Source: Candidatus Omnitrophota bacterium (GTDB taxonomy: Bacteria > Omnitrophota > Gorgyraeia > Zapsychrales > Fredricksoniimonadaceae). Taken from it: a stretch of 64,000 nt of DNA. The stretch is from positions 113,161 to 177,160 of the forward strand of contig JACQCF010000027.1 in NCBI GenBank assembly GCA_016201795.1, in the 5' to 3' direction. Below, in pieces: positions 2,473 through 45,384 of the stretch; within the stretch, counting starts at the first letter, position 1; each line of letters begins with the position of its first letter. The notes below the pieces were generated by a model that saw only the letters and a list, made by a program, of their open reading frames with translations, made no database searches and was not told the DNA's origin. Made by a program: the position numbers and the translations under genes.

Positions 2473-3012
2473 ATGAAAAGAATAGAATTATTCTTTTTGT
2501 GTTGGGTGTGTCTGATGAATATCGGCTGGGTCTGGCATAAAAATCCTAAAGTCGATGATTATATGCAAAAAGGCTATCATGCCTGGCAGGTGGGAAATTT
2601 GACCGAGGCGATGAGTAATTATAAACAGGCCTTAATACTTCAACCCGCTCAAACCGACGCGCTTAATTTCCTGGGTGTGATTTACGAAGAAATGGGCCTG
2701 CCCCAAAAAGCTGAAGAACAATATTTGGCTGCCATTAGCGTGGATACAAAGTTTTTACCGGCCTATTCCAACCTCGGCATTTTATACTGGAATCAGGGGG
2801 ACATTGACAAATCCATTTTCTATTTTCAAAAACGTGTAGAATTAGGCAGTGCCCATGACCCCTGGACAGTTAAAGCAGAAAAAGCTTTAGAAAATATGCA
2901 TGCCGACAAAGCCGTAGATCGTCAAAGCTTGATTCAACAGGCTATAGACCAAGCTCATCAGCAAATGTCTCAATCTCAAAAAATCAAACAACAGGCTGTG
3001 CATGGCCAATAA
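2473..3012 (+). CDS. Tetratricopeptide (TPR) repeat protein
   Basis: 179 aa; N-terminal hydrophobic segment then tandem 34-residue TPR-like repeats (YKQALILQP..ALNFLGVIYEEMG..AEEQYLAAI..AYSNLGILYWNQGD); AGGAG SD before ATG. Confidence 0.6.
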   Translation: MKRIELFFLCWVCLMNIGWVWHKNPKVDDYMQKGYHAWQVGNLTEAMSNYKQALILQPAQTDALNFLGVIYEEMGLPQKAEEQYLAAISVDTKFLPAYSNLGILYWNQGDIDKSIFYFQKRVELGSAHDPWTVKAEKALENMHADKAVDRQSLIQQAIDQAHQQMSQSQKIKQQAVHGQ

Positions 3013-3018
3013 TCTCCC

Positions 3019-5376: not shown

Positions 5377-6761
5377 AAATAGTTTTTTGCGCTTCCGAAG
5401 TTGTGCCTTTTGCCAAAACAGGAGGGCTGGCTGATGTTTGCGGCTCCCTGCCGCCGGCGCTGGAGGCCTGTGGGCATGAGATTGTGGTCATTACACCCCG
5501 CTATAAAACATCCAAAGTCAATGCCCCTTCACCGGTGGTACGCATCGGTAAAAAAGTACGAGTCTATTTTATCGAGCACGGTCATTACTTCGGCCGCGAA
5601 GGGCTTTACGGGGATACCGATGGCGATTATCAGGATAATTTAGAACGTTTTTCCCACTTTTGTCATCACAGCCTTAAACTTTTAAAAAATATTCGTTACA
5701 AGCCGGATATTATCCACTGCCATGACTGGCATACGGCGCTCATTCCCGTGCTGCTTAAAACTAAATATCAAAAAGAATCTTTTTTTAAAAATACCAAAAC
5801 GGTTTTGACCATTCATAATTTAGCTTATCAAGGCGTTTTCCCTTGGGAGCAGTATTCTACTTTAGGTGTGGAAGGTCACTTATTTCACACTCAAGGGTTG
5901 GAGTTTTATCGTCAAATCAACCTTCTTAAAGGGGGTATTATTTTTAGCGATGCCGTCACCACCGTTTCTCCCCGTTATGCCAAAGAAATTCAAACCCCTG
6001 AATTTGGCTGCGGATTGGAGGGGGTTTTAAGAAACCGTTCCAATGATATTTATGGCATCCTCAATGGCCTGGATTATGATGCTTGGAATCCACAGGATGA
6101 TCCGTTTTTGGCTACACCGTTTTCGTCTCATCAATGGGAGGGCAAGGCGCACAATAAGGCCTTTTTGCAGGATTTTTTAGGAATGACGATGGATGAGAGA
6201 CGTCCGGTATTTGGCTTTGTGGCTCGTTTGTGTCATCAAAAAGGGGTAGATCTTCTTGTGCAAGTCGTTGATGATATTATCCGTCTGGGAGGGCAAATAG
6301 CTTTAACCGGTATCGGTGAACGTAAATACCATCGTATGCTTGAGCAATGCGCCAAAGATCATCCCAAACATGTCGGTATTCATTTAAAATTCGAAGAGCG
6401 CCTGGCGCATCAAATTTATGCCGGCTCCGATTTCTTCTTAATGCCTTCGGCGTATGAGCCTTGTGGTTTGGGACAAATGATTGCTTTACGTTACGGCAGC
6501 ATTCCTGTGGTGCATAAAACCGGCGGACTTTCTGATACGATTTCTTTGTATGATTCTATTCATTACACGGGCAACGGATTTTTATTCACGGAATATACCA
6601 AAGAGGCGTTTGTCAAAGCCATCGCAGAAGCCATCAAAGTTTATAAGGATCCCAAACAAATGGACTTTTTAGTACCTCAGGCTATGCGGTATCGTTTCTG
6701 GTGGGATAAATCCGCCAAAGAATACATCAGGGTCTATCAAAAATGCTTATCATCGGCGTAA
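5373..6761 (+). CDS. glgA: Glycogen (starch) synthase, ADP-glucose type
   Basis: N-term MKIVFCASEVVPFAKTGGLADV (KTGGL motif); ATGA overlap with polA stop; the track's 5352 start is an upstream TTG in the same frame. Confidence 0.85.
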   Translation: MKIVFCASEVVPFAKTGGLADVCGSLPPALEACGHEIVVITPRYKTSKVNAPSPVVRIGKKVRVYFIEHGHYFGREGLYGDTDGDYQDNLERFSHFCHHSLKLLKNIRYKPDIIHCHDWHTALIPVLLKTKYQKESFFKNTKTVLTIHNLAYQGVFPWEQYSTLGVEGHLFHTQGLEFYRQINLLKGGIIFSDAVTTVSPRYAKEIQTPEFGCGLEGVLRNRSNDIYGILNGLDYDAWNPQDDPFLATPFSSHQWEGKAHNKAFLQDFLGMTMDERRPVFGFVARLCHQKGVDLLVQVVDDIIRLGGQIALTGIGERKYHRMLEQCAKDHPKHVGIHLKFEERLAHQIYAGSDFFLMPSAYEPCGLGQMIALRYGSIPVVHKTGGLSDTISLYDSIHYTGNGFLFTEYTKEAFVKAIAEAIKVYKDPKQMDFLVPQAMRYRFWWDKSAKEYIRVYQKCLSSA

Positions 6762-7348
6762 CCGGAAGTTTTGGCTCAGGTAAAACCACTGTCGCTAGCA
6801 TGTTCAAAGATTATGGGGCACTGACCATTGATGCGGATGCCATCACCCGACAGCTTTTGGCCCCAGGTGGAAAATGTGTAAAAACAGTGGTAAAAATTTT
6901 TGGACATGCTATACTTAATATAAATAAGATAAACCGTGTTGCTCTAGCCAAGATCGTTTTCCAAGATCCGCGTGAACTCAAAGTACTCACCAATATCCTT
7001 TATCCGGTTGGCTTAAAAGAAGTCAAAAAACAAATTGCTGTACATAAAAATGCGAAATTGATTATTTTGGATGTGCCTTTGTTATTCGAATCCGGCTGGG
7101 ATCAACTGGCGGATGTGAGCATTGTCGTACAATCAAATCAAACCACACAGATTAAACGATTGCAAAAATATCTAGGGCTTTCTAAGGGCGATATCTTGCG
7201 CCGTATCAAATGCCAGATGCCATTGAAGGAAAAGTTACCAAGAGCGGATATCGTCATCGATAACCGCGGTTCATTAGCACAAACGCGCGCCCAGGTAGCG
7301 GCGATAGTTCATAGATTGATGATGAGTCGGAAATGTTCCGACAATTAA
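6743..7348 (+). CDS. coaE: Dephospho-CoA kinase
   Basis: 201 aa; P-loop [14 protein letters not shown] at N-terminus, CoaE length and layout. Confidence 0.8.
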
Positions 7349-11024: not shown

Positions 11025-12284
11025 ATGGAAAAGTTTGTCATTGAAGGCGGCAGGGCGCTCAAAGGCGAAGTAAAGATCAGCGGATCCAAAAATGCGACTT
11101 TGCCTATTTTAGCCGCGACTTTGCTCACGGACGGCATCTGCGAAATTCGTAATGCGCCTAAACTGCAAGATACGCGGACGATGTGCAAACTGCTTAAGAC
11201 TTTGGGCAAGACGGTTGAGATGAACGGCAATCAAGTGACTGTTTCAGGCAGTGTCCATACTCACGTGGCAGACTATAAATTGGTCTCGACCATGCGCGGC
11301 TCGTTTTGCGTGCTAGGGCCCTTGTTGGGCAAATTAGGTAAAGCCAAAGTGTCCATGCCCGGCGGATGCGTGATTGGTGTTCGGCCCATTGATTTGCATT
11401 TAAAAGGCATCATTGCTCTGGGGGCCAGAGCGGATTTTGAGGCGGGTAATGTGATTGCCAGCGCTGCTAAACTCAAAGGGACTCAAATGTATTTGGGAGG
11501 CATGTTTGGATCATCGGTATTGGCTACGGCCAACGTCATGATGGCGGCTGTTTTGGCTCATGGCGAAACGATCATCGAAAGTGCCGCCTGTGAACCAGAA
11601 ATTGAAGATTTAGGAAATTTTCTTAGTGCTCTGGGTGCCAACATCGAGGGCCACGGCACCCCGCGCATTGTTATTAACGGCGTTAAGAAACTCAATGGGG
11701 CCAGCTACAGAATAGGGGCTGACCGTATCGAAGCCGGTACGTTTTTGCTCATGGCGGGGGCGGCTAAAAGCGATATGCTTATCCGAGATGCGCATTACAA
11801 CCATTTGTTAGTGCTCATTGATAAACTGCATTATGTCGGTGTGGATGTGCAAAAAGATGGCAATGATATCCGGGTTCGTTGTAAAAAGACGTTACGCCCG
11901 GCCAATGTGGTGACCCATCCGCATCCTGGTTTCCCGACGGATTTGCAGGCGCAGTATATGGCGCTTATGGCCATTACGCCGGGAGTTAGTATTGTGACCG
12001 ATCGTGTTTTCCCGGATCGTTTTATGCATATTGCCGAGCTTAACCGTATGGGGGCTCAAATCCGCCGCGACGCCGGAAGTGCAATTATCGAAGGAGTCAA
12101 ACATTTGTACGGCGCACCAGTCATGGCTTCCGATTTACGCGCTTCGGCAGCTTTGGTGATTGCAGGGCTGGTCGCTAAAGGCAAAACCGAAATTCACCGC
12201 ATTTATCACTTGGACCGCGGTTATGAAGATTTGGATCAAAAATTAATCCAGTTGGGCGCAAAAGTATTCAGAGAAAAGGAGTAA
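11025..12284 (+). CDS. murA: UDP-N-acetylglucosamine 1-carboxyvinyltransferase
   Basis: 419 aa; N-term MEKFVIEGG..L.G.V.ISGSKNA.LPILAA typical of MurA/EPT family. Confidence 0.9.
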   Translation: MEKFVIEGGRALKGEVKISGSKNATLPILAATLLTDGICEIRNAPKLQDTRTMCKLLKTLGKTVEMNGNQVTVSGSVHTHVADYKLVSTMRGSFCVLGPLLGKLGKAKVSMPGGCVIGVRPIDLHLKGIIALGARADFEAGNVIASAAKLKGTQMYLGGMFGSSVLATANVMMAAVLAHGETIIESAACEPEIEDLGNFLSALGANIEGHGTPRIVINGVKKLNGASYRIGADRIEAGTFLLMAGAAKSDMLIRDAHYNHLLVLIDKLHYVGVDVQKDGNDIRVRCKKTLRPANVVTHPHPGFPTDLQAQYMALMAITPGVSIVTDRVFPDRFMHIAELNRMGAQIRRDAGSAIIEGVKHLYGAPVMASDLRASAALVIAGLVAKGKTEIHRIYHLDRGYEDLDQKLIQLGAKVFREKE

Positions 12285-31677: not shown

Positions 31678-33069
<1,392 letters not shown>

Positions 33070-33105
33070 AAAGATTTGGGTTAGGTTAAGGATTAAAAAT
33101 TACTT

Positions 33106-33134
33106 TTGACGTTAAGAATCCCTAAAGTTAGAAT
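33106..33134 (+). promoter_or_regulatory. sigma70-like promoter (TTGACG-17-TAGAAT) for the PilZ-HEAT-Rieske-cyt b-cyt c operon
   Basis: -35 at 33106-33111, 17-nt spacer, -10 at 33129-33134. The predicted TSS is ~7 nt downstream, essentially at the PilZ ATG 33143, so the mRNA may be leaderless. Confidence 0.4.
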
Positions 33135-33142
33135 TGTTTCCT

Positions 33143-33511
33143 ATGAGTTTAAAAAAATATCAAGATTTTGAGGAACATCGTGACAGCGTACGTGCCAAGC
33201 GTATGATTACGGTGCGGCATCATCTGGTAAAGCATAAAGGACGTAACCTCGATAGTCCCTGGCAGGTATCTGTTACCGAGGATATGTCTTTAAGTGGGCT
33301 CTTGTTTGTCAGCGCGATTGCCTATCAGCCGGGGGATTGGTTGGAATTACAGGTAGTGATGTCCGGCGTTTTGGATATTTTTAAAGGTTACGGCGAGGTG
33401 GTGCGTTCAGTGCGCCGTAAAGGCGGCCATTATCAGGTGGCCGTTAAATATGTGGATTTAAAGCTTAAATCTCGCCCTGTCAAAAGTTTTCTAAAGCACT
33501 CTTCGAATTAA
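33143..33511 (+). CDS. PilZ domain protein (c-di-GMP binding motifs intact)
   Basis: RDSVR (RxxxR) and DMSLSG (DxSxxG) motifs; start moved to the ATG at 33143 because the track's TTG at 33134 would lie inside the predicted -10. Confidence 0.6.
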   Translation: MSLKKYQDFEEHRDSVRAKRMITVRHHLVKHKGRNLDSPWQVSVTEDMSLSGLLFVSAIAYQPGDWLELQVVMSGVLDIFKGYGEVVRSVRRKGGHYQVAVKYVDLKLKSRPVKSFLKHSSN

Positions 33512-33515
33512 CATC

Positions 33516-34388
33516 ATGCCTTACGATCCTTCCATTGACGATGCGAATCCCGATAAAAAAAGCGTCTTTGGGGTCATTGTGCATTCGTTTTTTGTGATCC
33601 CGTTTTTGCTGGCGATTTTTAGCGTTTTATTGCTGGTGTCGGTGCGTATTTTGACGATGGAAAAACGCGATGTGAATGATTATCTGGAAGATGTCAAAAC
33701 CGGCAGTTTAACCAAACGCTGGCAATCGGCTTTTGAACTCTCACGTATTCTTTCGAATCCTACTATGGTGCCGCATGATGAAAAATTTACCCGTCACATG
33801 ATGATGGCGTTTGAAAAATCCAAAAATGATGATGACCGTGTGCGTCAATACCTGGCTTTGGCCATGGGAAAAAGCGGCATCCAGGATTTTGTGGATGTTT
33901 TGATGAAAGCCGCACCAGAGGAAAAAGACGAAAACTTATATGCAATTATTACGAGCCTTGGTATACTAAAAAACAATAAGGCCATACCTGTTCTTTTAAA
34001 TGTTCTTAATAACGATAACGCACATTTGCGTTTGGTAGCTGTGATTGCATTGGGCAATATCGCTGATGGGCGAACCATTGCACCTTTAAAACACATGCTC
34101 AATGACCCACAGCCCAATGTCAGCTGGGATGCCGCGATTGCTTTAGCCAAAATGGGGAATAAATCAGGGAAAGCTATTATTTTGAATTTGCTTGACCGTC
34201 ATTATTTGGATCAAATTCCGCACCTCAATCCTCAAGAGCAAAGCCGTATCATGATGGTGGCGATTTCAACCACAGCAACCTGGCATGATGCTGATATTAA
34301 AAACATTTTAAAAGAACTTTTTGATAATGATAAAAATATGAACGTTCGTACTTTAGCGCGTCGCGTTTGGGAAGAATCTCATGGCTGA
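33516..34388 (+). CDS. HEAT / PBS-lyase-like repeat membrane-anchored protein
   Basis: 290 aa; N-terminal TM (VIVHSFFVIPFLLAIFSVLLLV) then repeated AL..LG...D.RA...L..AL helical pairs; 8-bp overlap with the Rieske gene. Confidence 0.55.
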   Translation: MPYDPSIDDANPDKKSVFGVIVHSFFVIPFLLAIFSVLLLVSVRILTMEKRDVNDYLEDVKTGSLTKRWQSAFELSRILSNPTMVPHDEKFTRHMMMAFEKSKNDDDRVRQYLALAMGKSGIQDFVDVLMKAAPEEKDENLYAIITSLGILKNNKAIPVLLNVLNNDNAHLRLVAVIALGNIADGRTIAPLKHMLNDPQPNVSWDAAIALAKMGNKSGKAIILNLLDRHYLDQIPHLNPQEQSRIMMVAISTTATWHDADIKNILKELFDNDKNMNVRTLARRVWEESHG

Positions 34389-34926
34389 TCAAAAACTTCC
34401 AGTCGCAGCGAATCAACCTCATTCTTCTAATAATGTATCCGGTGAAATGGACCGGCGATCCTTTATTAAATGGTCGCTCATCGGCTGGGGAGCTTTTGTA
34501 GCGGCCGTTGGCGGTTATGGTTCCATGGTCGTACGCTTTCTTTTTCCCAATGTGCTTTTTGAACCCGTACAGACATTTCGTGTGGGAACACCGGAAGAAT
34601 ATGAGGTGGGTGTTTCCGAGCAGTTTAAGGAAAGATATGGCGTTTGGATCGTACGTGACAGTGAAAAAATTTTTGCGCTTTCGACCGTCTGCACGCATCT
34701 GGGCTGCACACCTAATTATTTAACTGCCGAACAAAAATTTAAATGCCCCTGCCATGGCAGCGGCTTTTATATCAGCGGCATTAATTTTGAAGGTCCAGCA
34801 CCACGTCCTCTGGAGAGGTTTAAAATTTATCTCTCTGATGAAGGGGAAATCATCGTCGATAAAACTAAGAAATTTCAGCAGGAAAAAGGAGAGTGGTCAG
34901 ACTCTGATTCATTTATAACCGTATGA
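34381..34926 (+). CDS. Rieske [2Fe-2S] subunit of a cytochrome bc-type complex (Tat signal)
   Basis: Twin-arginine motif DRRSFIKW; Rieske boxes CTHLGC and CPCHGS. Confidence 0.8.
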
Positions 34927-35720
34927 GCATAGATCCTAACAAATTTTCTTTGTTTGAAAAATTCAAAAATACCCAATTTTACCGCTCCGTTTTTCGTACC
35001 GGCGTGCCGGTGGTCTCCCACCGTCAGCGTATGATGATCATGCTTAACAGTGTTTTTTTGCATTTGCACCCGGTGCGTTTGCCCAAACACGCGGTGAAAG
35101 TTCGTTACACCTGGTGCATGGGAGGCTTATCGTTTTTTATCTTTTTAGTGTTAACCGTTACGGGAATTCTTTTAATGTTTTATTATCGGCCGACCATTGA
35201 ATATGCCTATGGCGATGTCCTCGATTTAAGCCAGCAGGTACCTTTAGGGATTATGCGTGAAATCCACCGTTGGGGTGCGCATTTGATGGTCATTACCGTG
35301 TGGCTGCATATGTTCCGTGTTTTTATGACGGGCTCTTATAAACCGCCGCGAGAATTTAACTGGGTCATTGGTGTGTGCCTCCTGGTTACAACCATGCTTT
35401 TGAGTTTTACCGGTTACCTGCTGCCCTGGGATCAATTAGCTATTTGGGCGATTACCGTGGGTTCTAATATGGCTGGGGCTACACCGTTTTTAGGCATGAA
35501 CGGCCCGGGATCCTCTCTGTTAAGTATAGGGGATGTAAATTTTATCACTTCCGTTTCAGACGCGCGTTTTGCTCTGTTGGGCGGCCGTTTTGTAGGGGAA
35601 GCCGCTCTGCTTCGTTTTTACGTCTTACACTGCATAGGTTTACCGTTTATTATCATGATTTTTATGATTGTCCATTTCTGGCGTGTCAGAAAAGACGGAG
35701 GAATTTCCGGTCCTACTTAA
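34923..35720 (+). CDS. Cytochrome b, N-terminal (b6-like) half
   Basis: 265 aa, 4 TM helices with conserved haem-ligand His context ([20 protein letters not shown]). Confidence 0.8.
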
Positions 35721-35721
35721 T

Positions 35722-36840
35722 ATGATGGACGCTATTAAACATTTCATCAATTTTATCGCGGCCCCCAAAATTCTTTTTAACGTGATTTTGCTGTCTTACC
35801 TGATCATTTTCCCACCGATTAAACCTTTTCAAATTATCCATAATACCCTGGGCGTGGACCGTCTGTGGACCAAAAAAGGGGGGATTTTTATTTTCAGTTT
35901 GATGTTTTTGGCGTTTGGTTTTGGTTTGACCGATCCCAATTTTCGTCTGATTGTTCTTAAACCCGATAATGTGCCGATTGTCGCCTTGTTATTTTTAGTG
36001 GTTTTCTTTTTATGGTTTGCTTTAACCCAGGCCAAAGCCAATGATGAAGCGATCGCCAAGGGTGGCAAACCCAAGGAATGGGCAGAGTCCCGTGAAAAAG
36101 TTTTAGTCTTTCCGGATTTAGTTTATATCGAATTTATCGCTTTAATTGTCGCCGCGGCTTTGCTGGCCGTATGGGCCATTGCCCTGCAGGCACCGCTGGA
36201 ACAGCCAGCCAATCCCACGGTTTCACCGAACCCTTCCAAAGCACCCTGGTATTTCCTGGGTTTACAAGAAATGCTGGTGTATTTTGATCCATGGATTGCG
36301 GGGGTAGTTTTTCCGACGGTGATTATTTTAGGGATGATGTGCATTCCTTATTTGGATAAGAACCGCAAAGGTTTGGGCTATTACACCTATCAAGACCGCA
36401 AAATGGCCATTAATATTTTTATGTTTTTCTGGCTGGTGTTGTGGGTGTTTTTGATTTCCATTGGTACCTTTTTACGCGGTCCCAACTGGAATTTTTTTGG
36501 TCCCTTTGAATACTGGGATCACGATAAATTGGAGGTACTCAATAACGTCAATCTTTCAGAATATGTCTATATGATCGGTTTAAAGCAAGGGCTGCCTTCT
36601 AATATTTGGCTGCGCGAGGCACCGGGTTTTGCGGTGTTGATTGTTTATTTTGGACTGTTGCCGGCGATTTTAGCCAAAACAGCCTTCAAAGACGTGTACC
36701 AGCGTCTAGGCGTTGTGCGTTACAGTATTTTTGTGGTGCTTTTGCTCATGGCTCTGGCATTACCGATTAAGATGTATTTGCGCTGGCTGTTTAACATCAA
36801 ATACATTGTCGCCATACCGGAATACTTTTTTAACATATAA
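35722..36840 (+). CDS. Cytochrome b C-terminal half / subunit-IV-like protein with extra N-terminal helices
   Basis: SKAPWYFLGLQEMLVYF (PEWY-like motif) and multiple TM helices; starts immediately after the stop of the N-terminal half (split b6/SUIV arrangement). Confidence 0.65.
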   Translation: MMDAIKHFINFIAAPKILFNVILLSYLIIFPPIKPFQIIHNTLGVDRLWTKKGGIFIFSLMFLAFGFGLTDPNFRLIVLKPDNVPIVALLFLVVFFLWFALTQAKANDEAIAKGGKPKEWAESREKVLVFPDLVYIEFIALIVAAALLAVWAIALQAPLEQPANPTVSPNPSKAPWYFLGLQEMLVYFDPWIAGVVFPTVIILGMMCIPYLDKNRKGLGYYTYQDRKMAINIFMFFWLVLWVFLISIGTFLRGPNWNFFGPFEYWDHDKLEVLNNVNLSEYVYMIGLKQGLPSNIWLREAPGFAVLIVYFGLLPAILAKTAFKDVYQRLGVVRYSIFVVLLLMALALPIKMYLRWLFNIKYIVAIPEYFFNI

Positions 36841-36843
36841 TTT

Positions 36844-39843
36844 ATGCCTGCTCAACTGCCCCCTGAATCACATTACGATCCAAAAAATTTAGGAAAAATC
36901 TTCGCTCTGGTGGCGGTGGTTTTGTTGCTGTCGATCATCGGCATTTTTGTCAAAGATTATTCCCGTCAGTGGAAAGATTATCAACGTCAGTTTCATGCGT
37001 TAGAGGTTGAAAAGACCAGAATAAAACTAGATGAGCAAGAGAATGATTTAGCCAAGAATAATGAGTATCAGAAACTTCTTAAAGACCTTGAAGAGGCTCA
37101 AAATAAATTACACGAGCAGGATTCAAAGATGAATCTGATCAATGGGCAAATCAAAGCCGTAGATACTGTTAAGAGAATCCACACCAAAGAAGCGCAATTT
37201 GCCAAGGCTCAGTATGGCGCTTTGAAGTATCGTTACGAGAAAGCGCTGCATGAATCCCAGATGGATGCCAGTCAGTTGAAAAATCGATTGGATGATTTGG
37301 TCTTAAAGATTGAAAAATTACGTCTGCTTCTTGAAGCTGACGATGCGGATATGAAAGCTAAAGAAAATATGATGGCGGCCCTTCAAAAAAATTTTAAAGA
37401 ATTGGATAAAAAACGGTCTGCTTTTACCAAAAAAACTGAAGTCATCAAACGCAAATTAAAGAAAACGGACTTAGCGCAAATGAGCGCGGCCAATCAGGCG
37501 GCGGATATGGTGCGGGATTTGCCGTTTATCGAATTGGCTAATCCCAATTATAAAATCCATCAAATTGTGCTCAAAGACATTCCCGAAGATATCAATTTCA
37601 TGAAGACCCAAAGGGTGGACCGCTGCACCACCTGCCATTTAGGTATTGATAATCCCGACTTTCAAAACGCGCCCCAGCCGTTTACTACCCATCCACATTT
37701 AGAACTTTTTATGGATAAAAATTCGCCGCATCCTCTGGAAGAGTTTGGTTGCACCACCTGCCATATGGGACGCGGGCGGGGTACTGATTTCATTTCTGCG
37801 GCCCATACGCCCCGCGATGCAGAGCAGAAAAAAGAGTGGGAGAACAAATACAGCTGGTATGAACTGCATCACTGGGATCAGCCCATGCTGGCAGGGCCTT
37901 TAACCGAGGCTGGATGCTTTAAATGCCATGAAAACCAGACAGTCATTAAGGGAGCTGAAAAGTTAAACTTAGGGCTTAATTTGATTGAACGCGCCGACTG
38001 TTATAATTGCCATACGATTACAAAATATCAAGATTGGCCAAAATCCGGACCCAATTTGGAATTTATAGCCTCTAAGTCCACCAGAGAATGGGCTTATCAT
38101 TGGATCGATGACCCCAAATCCATTCGTTTTAACACTTGGATGCCGTCCTTCTTTCATCAATCCAATAACAACGACGCTGAATCGACCAAACGGGGTCAGC
38201 AGGAAGTACATGCCATTGTTGAGTATCTGTTTGCTAATAGCAAACCGTTTAGAGTAGATGCCATTCAATCTACCAGCCCCAAGTTGGGGGATGAAAAAAT
38301 TGGTAAAGAGCTGGTGGCTTCTTTAGGATGTTTGGCCTGTCATCAAGTGGAAAATCAAAAGACTAAGACGCCCCGCACACGGGATTCTTTACACCGCGAG
38401 TTTGGGCCTAATTTAATCGGTTTGGGCAGCAAAACCACCAAAGAATGGCTGTATCAGTGGCTTAAAGATCCTAGCCAATATCATCCTGGTGGCCGCATGC
38501 CTAATATGCGCTTATCCGATAAGGAGACTGCCGATATCGCGGCTTATCTTATTCAAGATAAATCATCACTGGTTAATAAACCTATTCCACCGGTGGATAA
38601 TAAAGTTCTTAATGCTATTGTCATGGATTTCTTAAAGAAATCTTCAACACTGAACGAATCTCAAGATCAGGTTAAAAGTATGAACCAGGAAGACAAATTG
38701 GTTTTTGCCGGTAAACGTTTGATTAGAGAATACGGTTGTTATGGTTGCCATCAAATTCCCGGCTTTGAAAATGAGAAGCCTATTGGTACGGAGTTAAGCG
38801 AAGAAGGATCCAAAGACCTGGAACGCTTGGATTTTGGTTTTATTAATATTGAGCATAGCAAACAGGCCTGGTTTAAACAGAAGCTGATGAATCCGCGTAT
38901 TTTTGATAAACAGAAGGTCAAGCAGCCGTTGGATAAACTCAAAATGCCTAATTTTAATTTCACCAGCGATGAGGCTGATGCTATCACCACCGCTTTGATG
39001 GGCTTTGTCAAAGATCGTCCTGGTCATGCGAAGATGGCGGATCAGAGTATGAAAACCGCTTTTATTAATGAGGGCGCCAAAACCATCCGTCAGCTTAATT
39101 GCCAGGGCTGTCATATGATTGATGGCGAGGGTGAGGCCATTCAAAGTACCGTTACCGATTGGCTGGTGGCGTACCAGGCTAGAGACCTTAATGATGCCCA
39201 GGCCGTCACTAAAAGTTTTTCACCGCCCAATCTTGTCGGTGAAGGACAAAAGGTGCAGGCCCAGTGGCTGTTTGAATTCTTGCATGGGCCCACACCCATT
39301 CGTCCTTGGCTTCATGTGCGTATGCCCACCTATAGTTTTCATGCTTCACAAATCAATTCCATTATCAAATATTTTAATTATTTGGATGATCAGGAATTTC
39401 CCTTTACTGATATTTATCATCCTAATTTGGCCAAAGAAGACCTCGAAGCAGCGGAAAAATTATTCTCTAAAGATTATTTTGGCTGCGCCTCCTGCCATAT
39501 CGTAGGCCATCAAATGCCCGGCGGATCCGCCGACAGCTGGGCTCCGGATTTTGCCCTGGCGGCCAAACGTTTAAAACCAGAGTGGATTGTCAAATGGATT
39601 ACCAATCCGCAGGATTTGTTGGTCGGCACAAAAATGCCGACGTATTATGATCCCAATAACTTTAATGCCTCAGCCCCGAGTAATATTTTAGGAGGAGATG
39701 CCAAACGTCAAATTCAAATTTTGCGTGATTATTTATTGACGATTTCTGAACATCCACCGCAGGTTAAGCCTGCTCCAGTAAAAGTGGAAGATAAAACTAA
39801 CCAGGCACCAGAAGACCACACACAAACCAATCAGAGCAAGTAG
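36844..39843 (+). CDS. Membrane-anchored octahaem c-type cytochrome with long N-terminal coiled coil
   Basis: 999 aa; N-terminal TM, ~170-residue K/E/Q-rich heptad region, then eight CxxCH motifs: CTTCH, CTTCH, CFKCH, CYNCH, CLACH, CYGCH, CQGCH, CASCH. Confidence 0.75.
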   Translation: MPAQLPPESHYDPKNLGKIFALVAVVLLLSIIGIFVKDYSRQWKDYQRQFHALEVEKTRIKLDEQENDLAKNNEYQKLLKDLEEAQNKLHEQDSKMNLINGQIKAVDTVKRIHTKEAQFAKAQYGALKYRYEKALHESQMDASQLKNRLDDLVLKIEKLRLLLEADDADMKAKENMMAALQKNFKELDKKRSAFTKKTEVIKRKLKKTDLAQMSAANQAADMVRDLPFIELANPNYKIHQIVLKDIPEDINFMKTQRVDRCTTCHLGIDNPDFQNAPQPFTTHPHLELFMDKNSPHPLEEFGCTTCHMGRGRGTDFISAAHTPRDAEQKKEWENKYSWYELHHWDQPMLAGPLTEAGCFKCHENQTVIKGAEKLNLGLNLIERADCYNCHTITKYQDWPKSGPNLEFIASKSTREWAYHWIDDPKSIRFNTWMPSFFHQSNNNDAESTKRGQQEVHAIVEYLFANSKPFRVDAIQSTSPKLGDEKIGKELVASLGCLACHQVENQKTKTPRTRDSLHREFGPNLIGLGSKTTKEWLYQWLKDPSQYHPGGRMPNMRLSDKETADIAAYLIQDKSSLVNKPIPPVDNKVLNAIVMDFLKKSSTLNESQDQVKSMNQEDKLVFAGKRLIREYGCYGCHQIPGFENEKPIGTELSEEGSKDLERLDFGFINIEHSKQAWFKQKLMNPRIFDKQKVKQPLDKLKMPNFNFTSDEADAITTALMGFVKDRPGHAKMADQSMKTAFINEGAKTIRQLNCQGCHMIDGEGEAIQSTVTDWLVAYQARDLNDAQAVTKSFSPPNLVGEGQKVQAQWLFEFLHGPTPIRPWLHVRMPTYSFHASQINSIIKYFNYLDDQEFPFTDIYHPNLAKEDLEAAEKLFSKDYFGCASCHIVGHQMPGGSADSWAPDFALAAKRLKPEWIVKWITNPQDLLVGTKMPTYYDPNNFNASAPSNILGGDAKRQIQILRDYLLTISEHPPQVKPAPVKVEDKTNQAPEDHTQTNQSK

Positions 39844-39846
39844 AAC

Positions 39847-40620
39847 ATGCTCGTCAAATTATTATTTTTAAGCTTACTCATTTTTGGCGTTACTTACCCG
39901 TTGTGTTTTTGGATATCCTTCAAAGACCCTATTAAAAACCATTTCCTACGATTTCATTTAGGTTGTCCTGTTTTTTTAGTAGGCTTAGCGCTTATGGGAT
40001 TACAATTCTTTAACATTGACGGGCATTTGAAATTATGGTTATGGGTTTGGTTTATCTGTGCCTTGTTGTTGATGGCTTATTTTTGGAACAAAGAAACCGT
40101 GCATTTAGGCCTTGTGACGCTGCTTTGTTGGTGGGGCATTAAGCTCTATACTTTATTTTACAGCTCTTGGGTGGGCCCTTCATTCCAAGAGATTGCGGTG
40201 AGCATTTTAGCGGGGTTAATTTTGTCAGCGGTGTTTTATGCCATGAACCTGGGGCATTTTTATTTGAATGTTCATGGGCTTAAACTGTATCATTTGAAAA
40301 ATGCCGTGATGGTTTTTGGAACATTGGTGCTGCTTCGCCTGTTGTGGAACATTTATGGAATAATGGCTTTTAAGACCATGTACGGGGGAGAACAGGTCAC
40401 TTTAAGGTATTTTATGACCACCACAGAAGGGACTTTTTTAGGAGTGGCTTTATTTTTTGGTGTTTTATTTCCTTTTGGTTCTTTGTATTTTATTTTTGGC
40501 ACCTTAAAGCTTAAAAATACGCAGGCTACCACCGGTCTTTTGTATGTTATTTTAAGCGCGGTGTTATTGGGGGATTTGGCGTATAAATATTACCTTTTGA
40601 GACACTCCATACCTTTATAA
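39847..40620 (+). CDS. Polytopic integral membrane protein (hypothetical, operonic with bc complex)
   Basis: 257 aa, ~8 predicted hydrophobic helices, starts 4 nt after the cytochrome c stop. Confidence 0.4.
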   Translation: MLVKLLFLSLLIFGVTYPLCFWISFKDPIKNHFLRFHLGCPVFLVGLALMGLQFFNIDGHLKLWLWVWFICALLLMAYFWNKETVHLGLVTLLCWWGIKLYTLFYSSWVGPSFQEIAVSILAGLILSAVFYAMNLGHFYLNVHGLKLYHLKNAVMVFGTLVLLRLLWNIYGIMAFKTMYGGEQVTLRYFMTTTEGTFLGVALFFGVLFPFGSLYFIFGTLKLKNTQATTGLLYVILSAVLLGDLAYKYYLLRHSIPL

Positions 40621-40622
40621 TT

Positions 40623-41033
40623 ATGCCGACGATTTCCCGTTTTTGTCCACAATGTAAGAAATATGCCCGTCTAAACGTCTTAGATGATAAAGCTTTGATT
40701 TGCCCTCACTGTCAAAACCAGTGGGGAAAGATTACAAAGCTAGAGACTATTTTTGAGCGTTGTCCTATATGTACCTGCCGGCAATTTTATACCGATAAAG
40801 ATTTTAATCAGGTTTTAGGGTTTTTAGTTATGGCGGTGGGTGTCGTGCTAGTGCCGCTGACCTATGGGTTAAGCCTAGCGGTTTTTGCTTTGATTGATTG
40901 GCTCATTTACCGCAAAGTCGCTAAACTGGTGGCCTGTTACCGCTGCGGGGGCGAATTTCGGGGGTTTAATATTCCTTCCCAACTCAAAGGCTTCATGCAC
41001 CATATCGGATTAAAATACGATAAATACCGTTAA
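40623..41033 (+). CDS. Double zinc-ribbon membrane protein (hypothetical)
   Basis: 136 aa; CPQC..CPHC and CPIC..CYRC pairs flanking two TM helices. Confidence 0.4.
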   Translation: MPTISRFCPQCKKYARLNVLDDKALICPHCQNQWGKITKLETIFERCPICTCRQFYTDKDFNQVLGFLVMAVGVVLVPLTYGLSLAVFALIDWLIYRKVAKLVACYRCGGEFRGFNIPSQLKGFMHHIGLKYDKYR

Positions 41034-41057
41034 TTTGATGTTAAATCAAAATATTAC

Positions 41058-41085
41058 TTGACATTTGAAAACGTTCTGCTAATAT
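41058..41085 (+). promoter_or_regulatory. sigma70-like promoter (TTGACA-16-TAATAT) heading the T4SS-like cluster
   Basis: Consensus -35 at 41058-41063, -10 TAATAT at 41080-41085, within the only sizeable (150-bp) intergenic gap of the region. Confidence 0.35.
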
Positions 41086-41192
41086 CCTTTGTAGATTTAT
41101 CAATTAAAAAAATTCATTTGGGATTCCCCCCATCCCAACAGTAGTGGCAGCAAATACTTTACTCATTTCCCCTACCCTTAAGATTGTTTTCG

Positions 41193-42389
41193 ATGGACAT
41201 TTTTGGATTGACATCCATTGATACCGCTTTAGCCACCTGGGGTTTAAACAGCGCACAAAAACTCACTGTGTTTTTATTTATACAAACTCCTGCAGGTATT
41301 GCCGCTTTTGCCACAGGTTTTCTTTGGAGTCTGTGGCAGTCTGTCCAAGAAAGTAATTTTAAGTATTTCGCTGTTTTCATTTTTATTTCTTTAACGGGTA
41401 TCCTGCTTTTGATAACACCCCAACGCCCAGAACCCGCCATTAAAAGCGCCATGGAAGCGTATGGCACAAACAGTGGTATCACAGCTAAATCTCTGAAAGA
41501 TTCTCAAACCAATGAACATCGTATGCCAGTGGTGTTGTCTTTCATTGGACAAATGTTCGATGCCATGAACATAGGCGCCATTTCTATTTTTGATAGCACT
41601 TTAACTGGTAACACTCGTTTTCTGAGTAATCCCTTTGGCCTTCAAAAGATTTCTTTGCAGGCCAACTACATTGTTAATAGCTCCATTGCTGATGTGCGTC
41701 TTAAAGAAGATTTGGATGATTTTATTTATGCCCATTATCTGCCTTCTCTCATGATGTATAAGAACGACGCCAGCTCTTTAAGTGATTTTTATTCTCTTTG
41801 GCCCGGGCATACGAAGATTCTTGGCTATTATTCCTCCAACGAGCGTAGTCAATGGGACGATCTTAAAAGCCGTCTAACACGTTTGATCAATGACCCTCAA
41901 GGTCCATGGCCCAAAATTAAAAATATATTAAAACAGATGAATACTCAAAATGATAATTTAGATGACCAAATCATGGCCTCTATCATTCAAGGGCAGTCGC
42001 ATCATTCTACTGGTCGTTGGTGGCTTTATTGGACAGGGTGGGTACAAACTTTTTTCCCTTATATTTACGGCGCGGGTAATTTTTGTCTATATGCCGGATT
42101 CCCTATGTTGATGCTGGCTATGATGATTATGCGGCGTATGAGTTTATTTTTAAGATATGCTGAAATGTTTATCTGGATTAAATCTTGGGCCTTGACAGCT
42201 GCCATGAGTTATTACATTTCGCTGATGGTCGCCGGTCTGCAGGCACAGACTTCATCCCAGGCAAATTGGTTTTGGGATTATCCCTATTATGTGGTTGTCG
42301 CCAGTATTCTTTTATGTTTAATACCCATTTTAACTTTGGTAAGCATTCATTATAGTTTTCAACTGATCAACAATCATTCTTTTACCTAA
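41193..42389 (+). CDS. Polytopic membrane protein with VirB6/TrbL-like topology (tentative)
   Basis: Two N-terminal TMs, ~200-aa hydrophilic loop, 3-4 C-terminal TMs (WWLYWTGWVQTFFPYIYG...). Assigned by topology and context only, with no diagnostic motif. Confidence 0.3.
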   Translation: MDIFGLTSIDTALATWGLNSAQKLTVFLFIQTPAGIAAFATGFLWSLWQSVQESNFKYFAVFIFISLTGILLLITPQRPEPAIKSAMEAYGTNSGITAKSLKDSQTNEHRMPVVLSFIGQMFDAMNIGAISIFDSTLTGNTRFLSNPFGLQKISLQANYIVNSSIADVRLKEDLDDFIYAHYLPSLMMYKNDASSLSDFYSLWPGHTKILGYYSSNERSQWDDLKSRLTRLINDPQGPWPKIKNILKQMNTQNDNLDDQIMASIIQGQSHHSTGRWWLYWTGWVQTFFPYIYGAGNFCLYAGFPMLMLAMMIMRRMSLFLRYAEMFIWIKSWALTAAMSYYISLMVAGLQAQTSSQANWFWDYPYYVVVASILLCLIPILTLVSIHYSFQLINNHSFT

Positions 42390-42399
42390 GGAGGAGGGT

Positions 42400-42678
42400 A
42401 TGTTTAAAAAGAAAGTATTCAACATCATAGTTAGTACAGGATTGTTCTGGTTAATCAAAATATCTAATGTTTGGGCGGATGACCCCATGGCTACAACTAC
42501 TGATTTCTCAACAAAGATGATAGATATTATTAAAGGTCCTGTTTTAAAATTATCAGCCGCAGTTGTACTTTTGGTGGGCGCCGTTGGACTGTTGCGCGGT
42601 CGTCATAGGCTAGCCATTTCTTGCGGTTTGGCTTTCTTGCTTCTTTTATTTTTACCCATTTTATTAAGTCATGTTTAA
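42400..42678 (+). CDS. VirB2/TrbC/TraA-like conjugative pilin
   Basis: 92 aa: signal peptide (..ISNVWA), then two hydrophobic helices separated by the basic RGRHR turn, which is the hallmark architecture of T4SS pilins; strong AGGAGG SD. Confidence 0.5.
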   Translation: MFKKKVFNIIVSTGLFWLIKISNVWADDPMATTTDFSTKMIDIIKGPVLKLSAAVVLLVGAVGLLRGRHRLAISCGLAFLLLLFLPILLSHV

Positions 42679-42692
42679 GGAAAGAATTCATT

Positions 42693-43007
42693 ATGAATCG
42701 AAAATGTCCACGTACCCTGGATAAACCGCTTCTATTGTTTGGACTAGAGGGGGAGGATGTTGCCCTATTAGCGCTAGTAGGGGGAGTAGGCAGTATTCTT
42801 TTTGGTCCTATTATTCCAGGGACATGCGCCATTGTCGGCTGGATTGTCTTAATGCAGTTTAAAAAGGATAAACCATCAGGGTATTTATTACACTGGCTTT
42901 ACGCCCAAGGGATTGATTTCCCTGGACTTATTCCACCCATCAAAAAAGTTGAGCGATACGGTATTTATGGAACAACCCCTTATGTCAAAAAATTCGCCGT
43001 TTGTTGA
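42693..43007 (+). CDS. TraL-like (F-type) / VirB3-class small T4SS membrane protein
   Basis: ~104 aa; P.TLD...L.FGLEGED...ALVGG hydrophobic core and downstream WLY motif resemble the TraL family; RBS AAGGAAAG. Confidence 0.45.
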   Translation: MNRKCPRTLDKPLLLFGLEGEDVALLALVGGVGSILFGPIIPGTCAIVGWIVLMQFKKDKPSGYLLHWLYAQGIDFPGLIPPIKKVERYGIYGTTPYVKKFAVC

Positions 43008-43572
43008 ACGATGGTCGAGGGCAGAGGTTGTTAATGCCAAATTAGGAGTCACGCTCATGGTTATAGGATTGATATGTCTGAGCCTAACGACCACCTTAAT
43101 CTATATCATCACCAAAGCACAGCCAATTTACTATGTACCGGGCGCCTCGTCTGCAGGTATAGCTTATGCTCAAACCACCTCTAAAACGACTGTAGCGATT
43201 TTCACCTCTTCCTGGGTATTGAACTGGTCGAATTTCACCCCTGCCACCGTCGAGGATGTGTACAAACATGCCGAACGGTTCATGTCTCCGCATTTATTAG
43301 CCCAAACAAGGACAAGGCTCAAAAAAGACCTTGAGCAGGTTAAAAATAACCATATGTCTTCCTTATTTTCTTTAAATCAGGAGCCTTTGGTGCAGGAAGA
43401 TCAACAGGGGTTTAATGTCACCATCCAGGGAGATAAAGGCATTTATATGGGCAAAGAAGAGATTAAGCTGCAAAAAATGATTTATCACCTACATTTAAGG
43501 TTATCGCCAGCAACGGATTGGAACCCGTATGGCTTGATTATTGAGGATATTTCTCAGGAGGTGGTGGGATGA
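42982..43572 (+). CDS. TraE / VirB8-like bitopic protein
   Basis: Short cytoplasmic N-terminus, one TM (LGVTLMVIGLICLSLTTTLIYII) and ~150-aa periplasmic domain; position after TraL-like matches the F-type order. Start uncertain because it overlaps the TraL-like 3' end. Confidence 0.4.
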   Translation: MSKNSPFVERWSRAEVVNAKLGVTLMVIGLICLSLTTTLIYIITKAQPIYYVPGASSAGIAYAQTTSKTTVAIFTSSWVLNWSNFTPATVEDVYKHAERFMSPHLLAQTRTRLKKDLEQVKNNHMSSLFSLNQEPLVQEDQQGFNVTIQGDKGIYMGKEEIKLQKMIYHLHLRLSPATDWNPYGLIIEDISQEVVG

Positions 43573-44252
43573 AAAGGATCATTTTTCTTATATTACTGTT
43601 AGCAGGGCTTTCTTCATGCGTTTTGCCAGCTAGCGCTTCTAATTTCAAGGACCAGGGTAAGCCAATAGATATTCAAGTGGAAGTGGGCAAAGTTACGGAA
43701 GTGGTTTTTCCAGCCAAGGTGGCTAAGGTGGTTAAAGGCGGGGCTGTCGATTCGGTGCTTGTCGAGGTGTTGGATAATTCTGTTTATATGTTGCCCAAAA
43801 CAGATGACCCCTCGGACATTTTTGTGATGACGACTTCGGGCAACAGCTACCCGTTAAATCTTCATATCAGTAGGGAACACGATATTAAAGTGCAGATAGG
43901 ATCTTTCAATCATCAGCCTAAGTTTTCTGCAGGTGTTTATGGGGATGTGATGGATTTGATGAAAGATTTACTTTTACAGAAAGAGCCGGCAGGGGCTACC
44001 GCTTTGCCGGGGGGCAATCAGGTGCTTTTGGCTAATCGACAAATTCAATTAAAAGTTGATAAGGCTTATGAGCTGGCAGGTTGGAAAGCCTATGTGTTAA
44101 CTGCTCGGAATCTTATGAACAATGCCGTCATTATTCCTATTGAACAAATGACGTTGCCTAATCTTTTGGCGGTTAGTTCTGATCAAGATATGTTAGCCGC
44201 CAAAGGCCAGCAGGGCGACGCCGCCAAAGTGTATGTGATTATGAGTAAATAA
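43569..44252 (+). CDS. TraK / VirB9-like secretin-N-domain protein
   Basis: Signal/lipobox LLLLAGLSSC; beta-rich N-domain with a DIFVMTTSGNSYPLNL-type strand pattern as in the VirB9/TraK/CagX N-terminus. Confidence 0.5.
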   Translation: MKRIIFLILLLAGLSSCVLPASASNFKDQGKPIDIQVEVGKVTEVVFPAKVAKVVKGGAVDSVLVEVLDNSVYMLPKTDDPSDIFVMTTSGNSYPLNLHISREHDIKVQIGSFNHQPKFSAGVYGDVMDLMKDLLLQKEPAGATALPGGNQVLLANRQIQLKVDKAYELAGWKAYVLTARNLMNNAVIIPIEQMTLPNLLAVSSDQDMLAAKGQQGDAAKVYVIMSK

Positions 44253-44253
44253 A

Positions 44254-45384
44254 ATGAATTTACAACCATTGCAAGATTTTATTAAGAAACAGCCTTTGGT
44301 CGTTGGGATAGGAGGCTTATTAGTTTTAGCGGTATTAGGATTATGGATGATGCATCAACCATTTAAGAAAGCTTCTTCAATAGCATCCGGGGCCAATGCT
44401 TCTAAAGATATTGGAATTTCCATCGGTGGAGCGGATCAACAGGCGTACATGGCCCGTCTGGAAAAAAATTATTATGACTTTGAAGAGCGGGTTAAAGATG
44501 TGGAAACTCAGCTCAAGAGTATGCAATCCACGGCGCAAGAGCTTAAAAATTCTCAAAAGGATATTGCGCAGACGGTTCTTAAACTGGATCAGGGTTTAGG
44601 AGTCAAGATGGACCAGCACCTTGAGGAATTCAAAACCAGCTTGGAGTCTGCTCAAAACAATGCTCCAGAGGAGTCTCCAGAGAAGGATGTGGAGTTATCG
44701 GTGGCAGATATCAATCCAACAGCCCAGGAGGATTGGGTGTATTTGCCCATCGGCAGTTTTTGCCAGGGAACTTTACTGACCGGCGTATATGCGGCGGCGG
44801 ATGCCAGTAATCCTTTACCGGTTTTAATTTCCTTAGATGAGGCTTTTTACGGGCCTAATAAAACCCGCATTCCACTTAAAGGGGCATTTGTGTTAGGTAA
44901 AGCCTACGGTGATTTAACCTCTCAGAGGGCGCTTATGCAAATTGTGGCCGTATCCGCTGTTTTACCCAACGGCCATGCGTTTGAAAATGAGCAGGATTTA
45001 GGCTATGTCACCGATGAGTTTGGGGAGCTTGGTATCAAAGGTCAGGTGGTTTATAACACGGGCCGCCAGCTGGCGATTTCTTTGTTGGGGGGATTTGTCT
45101 CTGGAGGGTCTCAGGCTGTTGCGGACAGTCAGGTGACCACGCATAAAACTTTGCAGGGAGATACGAGTAAAGACGTGACGGGTAGTCCCTCTAAAAATTT
45201 ACTGTTTTCAGGGCTGGCTCAAAGCGCGGGTAAGTTAGCCGAATTTTATCAAAAACAGGCTGAGGACCTGGTGCCTGCGGTGCATATTAAAAACGGTGCT
45301 AAAGTATTTTTCATTGTCCAAAAAGGAGTGACGATCAATGGGTTGGCTAAGAGCAATTTTAATCATCAGCGTTTTATGGATTAA
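44254..45384 (+). CDS. TraB / VirB10 (TrbI domain) protein
   Basis: 376 aa; N-terminal TM, coiled-coil linker, C-terminal TrbI-like domain (LPIGSFCQGTLLTGV...PVLISLDEAFYGPNKTRIPLKGAFVLGKAYGDLTSQRALMQI...LPNGHAF). Confidence 0.7.
   Translation: MNLQPLQDFIKKQPLVVGIGGLLVLAVLGLWMMHQPFKKASSIASGANASKDIGISIGGADQQAYMARLEKNYYDFEERVKDVETQLKSMQSTAQELKNSQKDIAQTVLKLDQGLGVKMDQHLEEFKTSLESAQNNAPEESPEKDVELSVADINPTAQEDWVYLPIGSFCQGTLLTGVYAAADASNPLPVLISLDEAFYGPNKTRIPLKGAFVLGKAYGDLTSQRALMQIVAVSAVLPNGHAFENEQDLGYVTDEFGELGIKGQVVYNTGRQLAISLLGGFVSGGSQAVADSQVTTHKTLQGDTSKDVTGSPSKNLLFSGLAQSAGKLAEFYQKQAEDLVPAVHIKNGAKVFFIVQKGVTINGLAKSNFNHQRFMD

Follow-up and report, generated by a model that had tools for sequence, protein, structure and literature searches.

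A stand-alone PilZ gene and a HEAT-headed Rieske/cytochrome b cassette: a probable recent operon fusion in one clade of Omnitrophota

Why does a gene for a predicted receptor of cyclic diguanylate (c-di-GMP), a second messenger, stand directly ahead of the genes of a Rieske/cytochrome b complex? The question is raised by a 64,000-nucleotide stretch of a Candidatus Omnitrophota genome (contig JACQCF010000027.1, positions 113,161 to 177,160; hereafter the window), in which a stand-alone PilZ gene (33143-33511, plus strand) is followed by a gene for a membrane-anchored HEAT-repeat protein (33516-34388, plus strand) and by the genes of a cytochrome bc (bc) operon. A preliminary description of this DNA had proposed that the arrangement places the assembly or activity of the respiratory complex under c-di-GMP control, and that the PilZ gene is transcribed without a leader. 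The PilZ and HEAT proteins of the window are 100% identical to annotated proteins from a Candidatus Omnitrophica metagenome-assembled genome (MAG). The explanation that we favour, with a probability of about 0.7, is that the eight-gene unit at 33143-41033 is a recent fusion of two older units, the PilZ gene and the bc cassette. The first of these would be a small stand-alone PilZ gene that lies after a citrate synthase/aminopeptidase/fumarase cluster across the phylum and has its own sigma-70-type promoter, and the second a seven-gene, b6-type Rieske/cytochrome b cassette headed by the HEAT gene.

In order to compare the surroundings of the two genes, one genome per species was scanned with the PilZ alignment, which gave 29 loci, all from Omnitrophota-type MAGs; the neighbour counts cover 30 PilZ-anchored loci. 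The 85 loci of a HEAT-anchored set (L030-L114) were 80 from metagenomes (41-91% identity) and five from look-ups, and later additions carrying HEAT were the P0007 contig, L115 and L116 (HEAT 72-76% identity) and L117. At most PilZ loci, as in the window, PilZ lies downstream of citrate synthase, leucyl aminopeptidase (then Band_7) and fumarase (fumC). The genes on its other side are mostly of other kinds: HEAT-bc genes follow PilZ at 3 of the 30 PilZ-anchored loci (only at L007 and L008 among the 29 scanned), and at the remaining 27 PilZ stands beside unrelated genes while having the same motifs and promoter. One such neighbourhood, found at L002, L010, L012 and L024-L026 and including the most distant PilZ orthologues, has a convergent three-gene cluster that resembles the PntAB transhydrogenase by sequence only; elsewhere the downstream genes encode large membrane proteins with a YgjP-like peptidase. 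When all strands of the 85 HEAT-anchored loci were searched with a hidden Markov model of the PilZ family, no PilZ was found.

The HEAT gene, on the other hand, has a constant partner. The order HEAT, Rieske, b6, subunit IV, large multihaem cytochrome c was found at 77 of 77 testable loci of the HEAT-anchored set, the other 8 of the 85 ending within about 200 nt of HEAT, and the same order was seen at L007, L008, L115, L116, the P0007 contig and L117. Rieske directly follows HEAT at every locus with enough downstream DNA (84/84), so that the coupling of the HEAT gene to the Rieske/cytochrome b operon, which had been described from the window, is real and general. What lies upstream of HEAT differs among clades. 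The ATP synthase operon is the commonest neighbour (about 25-30 loci, counted by eye), and others are a NUDIX gene, a tRNA-Leu(TAG), a recurrent 390-aa gene at marine loci and a transporter-like membrane protein. Because the downstream order is constant while the upstream neighbours vary, the HEAT gene is, as gene order indicates, the first gene of a mobile, conserved seven-gene cassette. The cassette may also extend beyond typical Omnitrophota, since at L117 (7001-14762), on a high-G+C ENA contig of 5.28 Mb, HEAT, Rieske (313 aa), b6, subunit IV, multihaem cytochrome c and a 264-aa gene stand in a row, and a relative of the L117 HEAT protein is labelled Spirochaetaceae in NCBI.

The two units meet in one clade. 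The full arrangement of leucyl aminopeptidase, Band_7, FumC, PilZ, HEAT and Rieske was found on the P0007 contig and at L115 and L116, and the PilZ-HEAT-bc clade has at least six lineages (the window, L007, L008, the P0007 contig, L115 and L116). We suggest that in this clade the cassette came to be placed immediately after PilZ (gaps of −1 to 8 nt), and that after the fusion either PilZ or its bc partner was lost independently. Signs of such losses were found on both sides. At L035, whose HEAT protein is 91% identical to that of the window, the first ~40 nt of PilZ are joined to its last ~70 nt and the middle of the gene is deleted together with the promoter; the decayed gene (L035:686-812) leaves an 18-codon open reading frame, MSLKQHQDFKERRGGFKV and a stop, and HEAT-Rieske is intact downstream. 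At L036 (HEAT 86%), the fumC stop codon is followed after 4 nt by the HEAT ATG, PilZ being gone and the bc operon intact. Conversely, L014 and L015 keep PilZ and the N-terminal signature of the clade, and are without the HEAT, Rieske and cytochrome b genes. PilZ is followed at L014 by a small gene resembling a TrmH-type methyltransferase, and at L015 it shares 1 nt with the start of a gene (5501-7222) for a 573-aa cytochrome c. This cytochrome has an N-terminus like a signal peptide, and its identity to residues 366-970 of the 999-aa protein of the window is 57%; the gene is what a deletion left of the bc operon or else a paralogue. Judging from these loci, both partners have been lost independently within the clade. 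Scattered losses of PilZ and of the bc genes, together with the unrelated contexts of PilZ elsewhere, therefore form the pattern expected of a positional fusion, and not that of a receptor dedicated to the complex. The preliminary description had held that the adjacency would be one of chance if all related genomes lacked the PilZ and HEAT genes in this operon. A look at the relatives divides that statement, as HEAT-Rieske is found everywhere it could be tested, while PilZ is absent from the operon outside the one clade of six lineages.

A different explanation of the same loci is a clade-specific coupling, in which PilZ loaded with c-di-GMP binds HEAT or the bc core and tunes the assembly or activity of the respiratory complex. 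The tight junctions of PilZ and HEAT in at least six diverged lineages speak for it, as do the stand-alone PilZ proteins that act elsewhere as protein-binding adaptors (MotI/DgrA is among the structural matches of the window protein), the overlap of PilZ with the start of a cytochrome c gene at L015, and an HD_5 (HD-GYP-type) gene directly upstream of PilZ at L008. However, the same PilZ orthologue adjoins unrelated genes at nine tenths of the PilZ-anchored loci (27/30) and occurs at none of the 85 HEAT-anchored loci; PilZ was deleted in the two closest relatives (L035 and L036) with the bc operon left intact, and L014 and L015 lost the bc genes and kept PilZ. We consider such a coupling unlikely. 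Its more specific form, in which a leaderless PilZ was recruited within the clade as a c-di-GMP-dependent regulator of a new b6-like complex by way of the HEAT subunit, is quite improbable; if it were true, PilZ-HEAT regulation would for the first time bring a second messenger to bear on a Rieske/cytochrome b complex. Since the coupling to PilZ is specific to one clade and dispensable, the comparison does not support a control of the bc complex by c-di-GMP, and the built-in link that had first been proposed gives way before a PilZ-HEAT count of 3/30, a PilZ count of 0/85 and losses in both directions. The juxtaposition of PilZ with the bc genes would provide for their co-expression, but it does not bind c-di-GMP and the bc complex into an obligatory functional link.

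We examined how closely the genes of the window are packed. The PilZ stop codon TAA (33509-33511) is separated by CATC from the HEAT ATG at 33516, a gap of 4 nt, and the Rieske ATG at 34381 lies inside ATGGCTGA, where it overlaps the end of HEAT by 8 nt; both spacings had been reported for this DNA and both hold. An alternative in-frame Rieske ATG at 34447 (M23, directly before DRRSFIK) is the start called in some homologues, but the start at 34381 is more likely because the first 22 residues can be aligned with those of L007 and L008, which are close relatives. Downstream of Rieske the gaps between genes are −4 to +3 nt, and a gap of 160 nt follows position 41033, so that the tightly packed unit consists of eight genes, 33143-41033 (~7.9 kb). 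Co-transcription of PilZ with the bc genes is likely in the window. According to the fusion that we propose, the PilZ promoter would drive all eight genes in the PilZ-HEAT-bc clade, and HEAT would be translated by termination-reinitiation, a mode suggested because the junctions are TAATG or 1-8 nt and have no Shine-Dalgarno (SD) sequence.

The PilZ gene encodes a stand-alone PilZ-domain protein of 122 aa, a predicted c-di-GMP receptor, which matches Pfam PF07238 with an E value of 1.5e-7 and 32.1 bits (cut-off 22.5). Both c-di-GMP motifs that had been read from the sequence are intact: RxxxR is present as HRDSVR (R13..R17) and DxSxxG as DMSLSG (D47, S49, G52). Four residues, R13, R17, S49 and G52, are invariant in a 34-sequence alignment of the PilZ family with a mean column identity of 69%, in which the motifs are conserved as RRDSVR and (D/N)MSLSG. 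A homologue search returned 314 proteins, and among the 120 listed the sizes were 110-136 aa and the identities to the window protein 61-75%; as aligned, this is a family of small, highly conserved proteins. The AlphaFold2 model is a six-stranded antiparallel beta-barrel with a predicted local distance difference test score (pLDDT) of 71 overall and ~85-90 in the core. Its top Foldseek matches in the PDB were all c-di-GMP-binding PilZ domains (probability 1.0, TM-score ~0.5, identity 13-18%), namely those of MotI/DgrA, BcsA, VCA0042, Alg44, MrkH, PA0012 and YcgR. The fold search was required, as a sequence-profile search of the PDB with PilZ gave no genuine relative; matches to RIPK3 kinase in that search (E 0.014-0.15) were spurious and were discarded. 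The protein has no second domain and ends in a conserved basic tail (K107, R111, K114).

Domains of c-di-GMP turnover were found near PilZ in relatives. A GGDEF protein is encoded at 11051-11950 of the L015 locus, and at L008 the space between fumC and PilZ holds a gene (2526-4001) for a 491-aa GAF + HD_5 (HD-GYP-type) protein, a phosphodiesterase candidate for c-di-GMP, which ends 12 nt before the PilZ ATG. The GG(D/E)EF motif occurs nowhere in the 64-kb window and, among loci L001-L114, at L015 alone; an Rfam scan of 32800-41300 found no riboswitch, c-di-GMP riboswitches included, and no other RNA. Given the canonical motifs, the PilZ fold and the turnover domains in relatives, we infer that binding of c-di-GMP by the protein is likely. 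In domain, motifs and six-stranded barrel it is like MotI/DgrA (Bacillus subtilis, 5vx6), VCA0042/PlzD (2rde), Alg44 and BcsA, and like PA0012 (8u0i) and MapZ/PA4608 (5y4r) it is small and single-domain. It differs from these proteins in sequence (13-18% identical to any solved PilZ), in its basic C-terminal tail and in its leaderless-type promoter, and in contrast to known stand-alone PilZ receptors, no motility or polysaccharide partner consistently adjoins PilZ genes of the window type.

The sequence upstream of the PilZ ATG was compared among loci. The −35 hexamer TTGACG (33106-33111) and the −10 hexamer TAGAAT (33129-33134), both on the plus strand, are separated by a 17-nt spacer and together match 10 of 12 consensus positions; as had been described, they stand close to the start codon, the −10 ending 8 nt before the PilZ ATG. 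The A of this ATG is the only purine within the usual range of transcription starts. Promoter-like sites are frequent in the region (13 observed against 7.0 +/- 2.4 expected), and a lone consensus match is for this reason weak evidence. One such site within PilZ, GTGACA-16-TATGAT at 33180-33207 (10 of 12), was taken as a coding coincidence, as it falls on the conserved codons of RDSVRAKRMI. The comparison of orthologues carries more weight. With a threshold of at least 9 of 12 matches, TTGAC(G/C)-16/17-TA(G/A/C)AAT ends 6-9 nt before the PilZ ATG at 17 of 27 loci and, with L115 and L116 added, at 19 of 29; this geometry is kept behind at least six different upstream genes (among them fumC, a 367-aa gene and glycosyltransferase-like genes), the spacer itself drifting in sequence. 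PilZ starts with ATG at all 27 loci examined. At most promoter-bearing loci this ATG is the sole start codon between the in-frame stop and the RxxxR motif, and the stop itself is often the TAG of TAGAAT. No SD-like 4-5-mer was found at −20 to −3 of the window PilZ.

Because the promoter geometry is conserved across loci, SD sequences are absent and the ATG is the sole start, leaderless expression of PilZ, with transcription beginning at or within ~3 nt of the AUG, is well supported by comparison, though not proven. The leaderless first cistron of the preliminary description thereby gains strong comparative backing. Leaderless genes are known from other bacteria, for example lambda cI, Tn1721 tetR and many genes of Actinobacteria and Deinococcus, with a −10 box ~7 nt before the start codon; PilZ shares with them the ATG start, the missing SD and a −10 ending 6-9 nt upstream. 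The arrangement appears to be specific to this gene and not a habit of the genome, since PilZ was the only one of 52 roughly called window genes (at least 110 aa) in which a promoter with at least 9 of 12 matches abuts the start. No conserved promoter geometry was seen before HEAT in other lineages. Exceptions exist among the PilZ orthologues: L024 and L026, which are distant, have longer leaders, with a GAGG in L026, and at L002, L013 and L014 PilZ nearly touches fumC and the conserved promoter element is missing.

The missing element at L002, L013 and L014, together with L035 and L036, where the bc operons abut fumC without a PilZ promoter, favours the idea that TTGACG...TAGAAT is not a working leaderless promoter and that an upstream promoter reads through fumC, the PilZ start then being internal and SD-less. 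No terminator was found between fumC and PilZ, and initiation independent of an SD seems common here, as an SD-like 4-5-mer precedes only ~38% of the window genes and none of the genes of the bc operon. Against this idea, 19 of 29 loci retain both hexamers together with the length of the spacer and its position relative to the ATG, behind at least six upstream genes and with a spacer sequence that drifts, and no other window gene has such a promoter arrangement. We therefore regard fumC read-through in place of the leaderless promoter as improbable.

The HEAT gene (33516-34388, plus strand), the first of the bc cassette, encodes a protein of 290 aa. In agreement with its earlier reading as a membrane-anchored protein of HEAT/PBS-lyase-like repeats, it matched Pfam HEAT_2 (1.5e-20) and HEAT_PBS (PF03130; 4.2e-10), and its AlphaFold2 model (pLDDT 89.5) has one transmembrane helix at residues 17-47 followed by ~7 helical hairpins. 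A family search gave 1119 matches. The most conserved parts of the protein are the transmembrane helix, with invariant H23, S24, F25, F26, P29 and F30 (IVHSFFxxPF), and the adjoining KRWQxAFELS, which is also invariant, and this conservation argues for a specific intramembrane contact. In the mechanism that we propose, the helix would dock on the membrane core of the complex and the alpha-solenoid would serve as a protein-binding platform. As predicted from sequence and model, the HEAT protein most likely serves the bc complex as a dedicated accessory subunit or in its assembly.

Sequence and fold searches of the PDB with the HEAT protein returned generic HEAT solenoids only, of which the nearest natural protein was CpcE, a bilin lyase subunit (5n3u; sequence profile 7.8e-7, Foldseek 2.3e-5, TM-score 0.55-0.60). 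This likeness suggests, by analogy with CpcE/F, that HEAT could be a HEAT_PBS-type lyase or chaperone through which haem ci gains its single thioether bond to the b6-like subunit. The HEAT_PBS match, the place of CpcE among the closest natural structures, a cytochrome b subunit that retains a Cys where b6 has its haem ci Cys in the alignment, and a HEAT gene that is always first in the cassette are all in line with such a function. But the resemblance to CpcE is one of generic repeats, as designed consensus repeats (alphaRep) match far better (1e-50 to 1e-68 by sequence profile), and neither the PDB profile scores nor the genomic context gave a sign of specific kinship to CpcE/F beyond them. 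The protein has no conserved Cys or catalytic signature, its sole invariant His lies inside the transmembrane helix, and by the positive-inside rule neither side of the membrane is clearly favoured for the repeats. A lyase function is thus highly unlikely. HEAT shares with CpcE/CpcF (5n3u), MTH187 (1te4), YibA (1oyz) and alphaRep the ~31-residue HEAT_2/HEAT_PBS repeats and an alpha-solenoid of ~7 hairpins, to which it adds the strictly conserved N-terminal transmembrane helix and KRWQxAFELS; unlike CpcE/CpcF, it is partnered invariably with the Rieske/cytochrome b operon and not with phycobiliproteins. The PDB entry 10lk, a 291-aa HEAT-repeat chain, was considered as a solved respiratory homologue and rejected as unrelated, since no 10lk chain is among the cytochrome b or cytochrome c matches.

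Several observations weigh against the fusion of a PilZ unit with a cassette headed by an accessory subunit. Throughout the clade PilZ and HEAT are still tightly joined (TAATG, or 1-8 nt), although the proteins have diverged to 72-79% (HEAT) and 58-68% (PilZ) identity; such a junction is no mere passing accident, and it would fit a functional link specific to the clade. No terminator was found between 33069 and 33143, which makes transcription from fumC into PilZ possible. On the HEAT side, the residues flanking the transmembrane helix include on average 1.8 Lys and Arg before it and 2.2 after it, and the role given to the protein is drawn from conservation and fold.

The remaining genes of the cassette, all on the plus strand, point to a complex of the b6 type. 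The Rieske [2Fe-2S] protein (34381-34926; 181 aa, Pfam Rieske) has CTHLGC at residue 104, CPCH at residue 122 and the twin-arginine motif DRRSFIK. It is followed by a cytochrome b6-like subunit (34923-35720; 265 aa, Pfam Cytochrome_B), corresponding to the N-terminal half of cytochrome b, whose best PDB relatives were cytochrome b6 chains (4e-43) and in which TWCMGG aligns with FYCLGG of cytochrome b6, the Cys that binds haem ci being kept. Next comes an extended subunit-IV-like protein, similar to PetD and the C-terminal part of cytochrome b (35722-36840; 372 aa from the ATG at 35722, Pfam Cytochrom_B_C; homologues 368-385 aa). An octahaem cytochrome c of 999 aa with eight CxxCH motifs (36844-39843) found no relative in a PDB sequence search. 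The unit is completed by a conserved 257-aa protein (39847-40620), polytopic and membrane-like from its sequence and in no Pfam family, whose gene sits after the cytochrome c at L007, L008, L030-L034 and L117, and by a 136-aa zinc-ribbon membrane-like protein (40623-41033) with weak zinc-ribbon matches and a hydrophobic stretch; the latter is the last tightly packed gene, and a 132-136-aa gene stands at the same position at L030 and L032.

By its split cytochrome b, its haem ci Cys and its best PDB relative, the complex of the window is b6-type. A split cytochrome b with haem ci is also found in the b6-type menaquinol:cytochrome c reductases of Firmicutes. Neither a cytochrome f nor a mono- or dihaem c1-type partner was found in the cassette, where that place is taken by the 999-aa octahaem protein; the predicted complex is a variant architecture and not a canonical b6f or bc1. 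Compared with cytochrome b6f, the cassette shares the Rieske motifs CxHxGC and CxCH, the split into b6 and subunit IV, and the haem ci Cys. It differs in having an octahaem cytochrome c and no cytochrome f, in a subunit IV extended to ~372 aa, and in three additional conserved genes, which encode the transmembrane HEAT protein, the 257-aa membrane protein and the 136-aa zinc-ribbon membrane protein.

Some further features of the loci were recorded. At four marine-clade loci that were checked, a tRNA-Leu(TAG) lies just 5' of HEAT (L083:3879-3961, L087:3880-3963, L096:3850-3934 and L113:3871-3954), and several further marine loci have the same tRNA 3'-end sequence at this place; there the cassette therefore begins with HEAT right after the tRNA. 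A NUDIX-family gene adjoins HEAT in distant lineages (L030:6451-6999, L032:6440-7000 and, on the minus strand, L117:6498-6926), either in the same orientation behind the ATP synthase operon or divergently, and is possibly a further, loosely linked partner of the cassette. At L107 (3168-7499), Rieske and cytochrome b are present as an inverted duplicate after a truncated subunit IV gene, probably an assembly artefact. In the window, all 52 of the roughly called genes are on the plus strand. Directly 3' of the bc operon, at 41184-45384, there is a small cluster resembling F-type conjugation and type IV secretion systems, with TraE, TraK and TrbI/TraB domains and a weak TraG_N match, flanked by respiratory genes and by pentose-phosphate genes (transketolase, transaldolase).

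In the literature, within the limited coverage that we had, nothing was found that links HEAT-repeat or PilZ proteins to Rieske/cytochrome b complexes, which is absence of evidence only, and nothing on the HEAT-bc cassette in Omnitrophota, on leaderless PilZ genes or on c-di-GMP in Omnitrophota; in the PDB, no solved Rieske/cytochrome b structure with a HEAT-type partner was found. The PilZ part of the locus does not establish c-di-GMP control of respiration. It offers a clean, datable example of operon fusion, in which a promoter-bearing signalling gene would have captured a respiratory operon and either partner was then lost, and also a comparative case of a conserved leaderless gene in a phylum without transcript maps. 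The solid result is that a widespread Rieske/cytochrome b complex of uncultured lineages is always accompanied by a dedicated gene for a membrane-anchored HEAT protein, and that the same cassette brings an octahaem cytochrome c as well as two more conserved genes for membrane proteins. This constant HEAT partner, more notable than the second-messenger hypothesis, points to an unrecognised component of a core bioenergetic enzyme, either an accessory subunit or a factor in its assembly.

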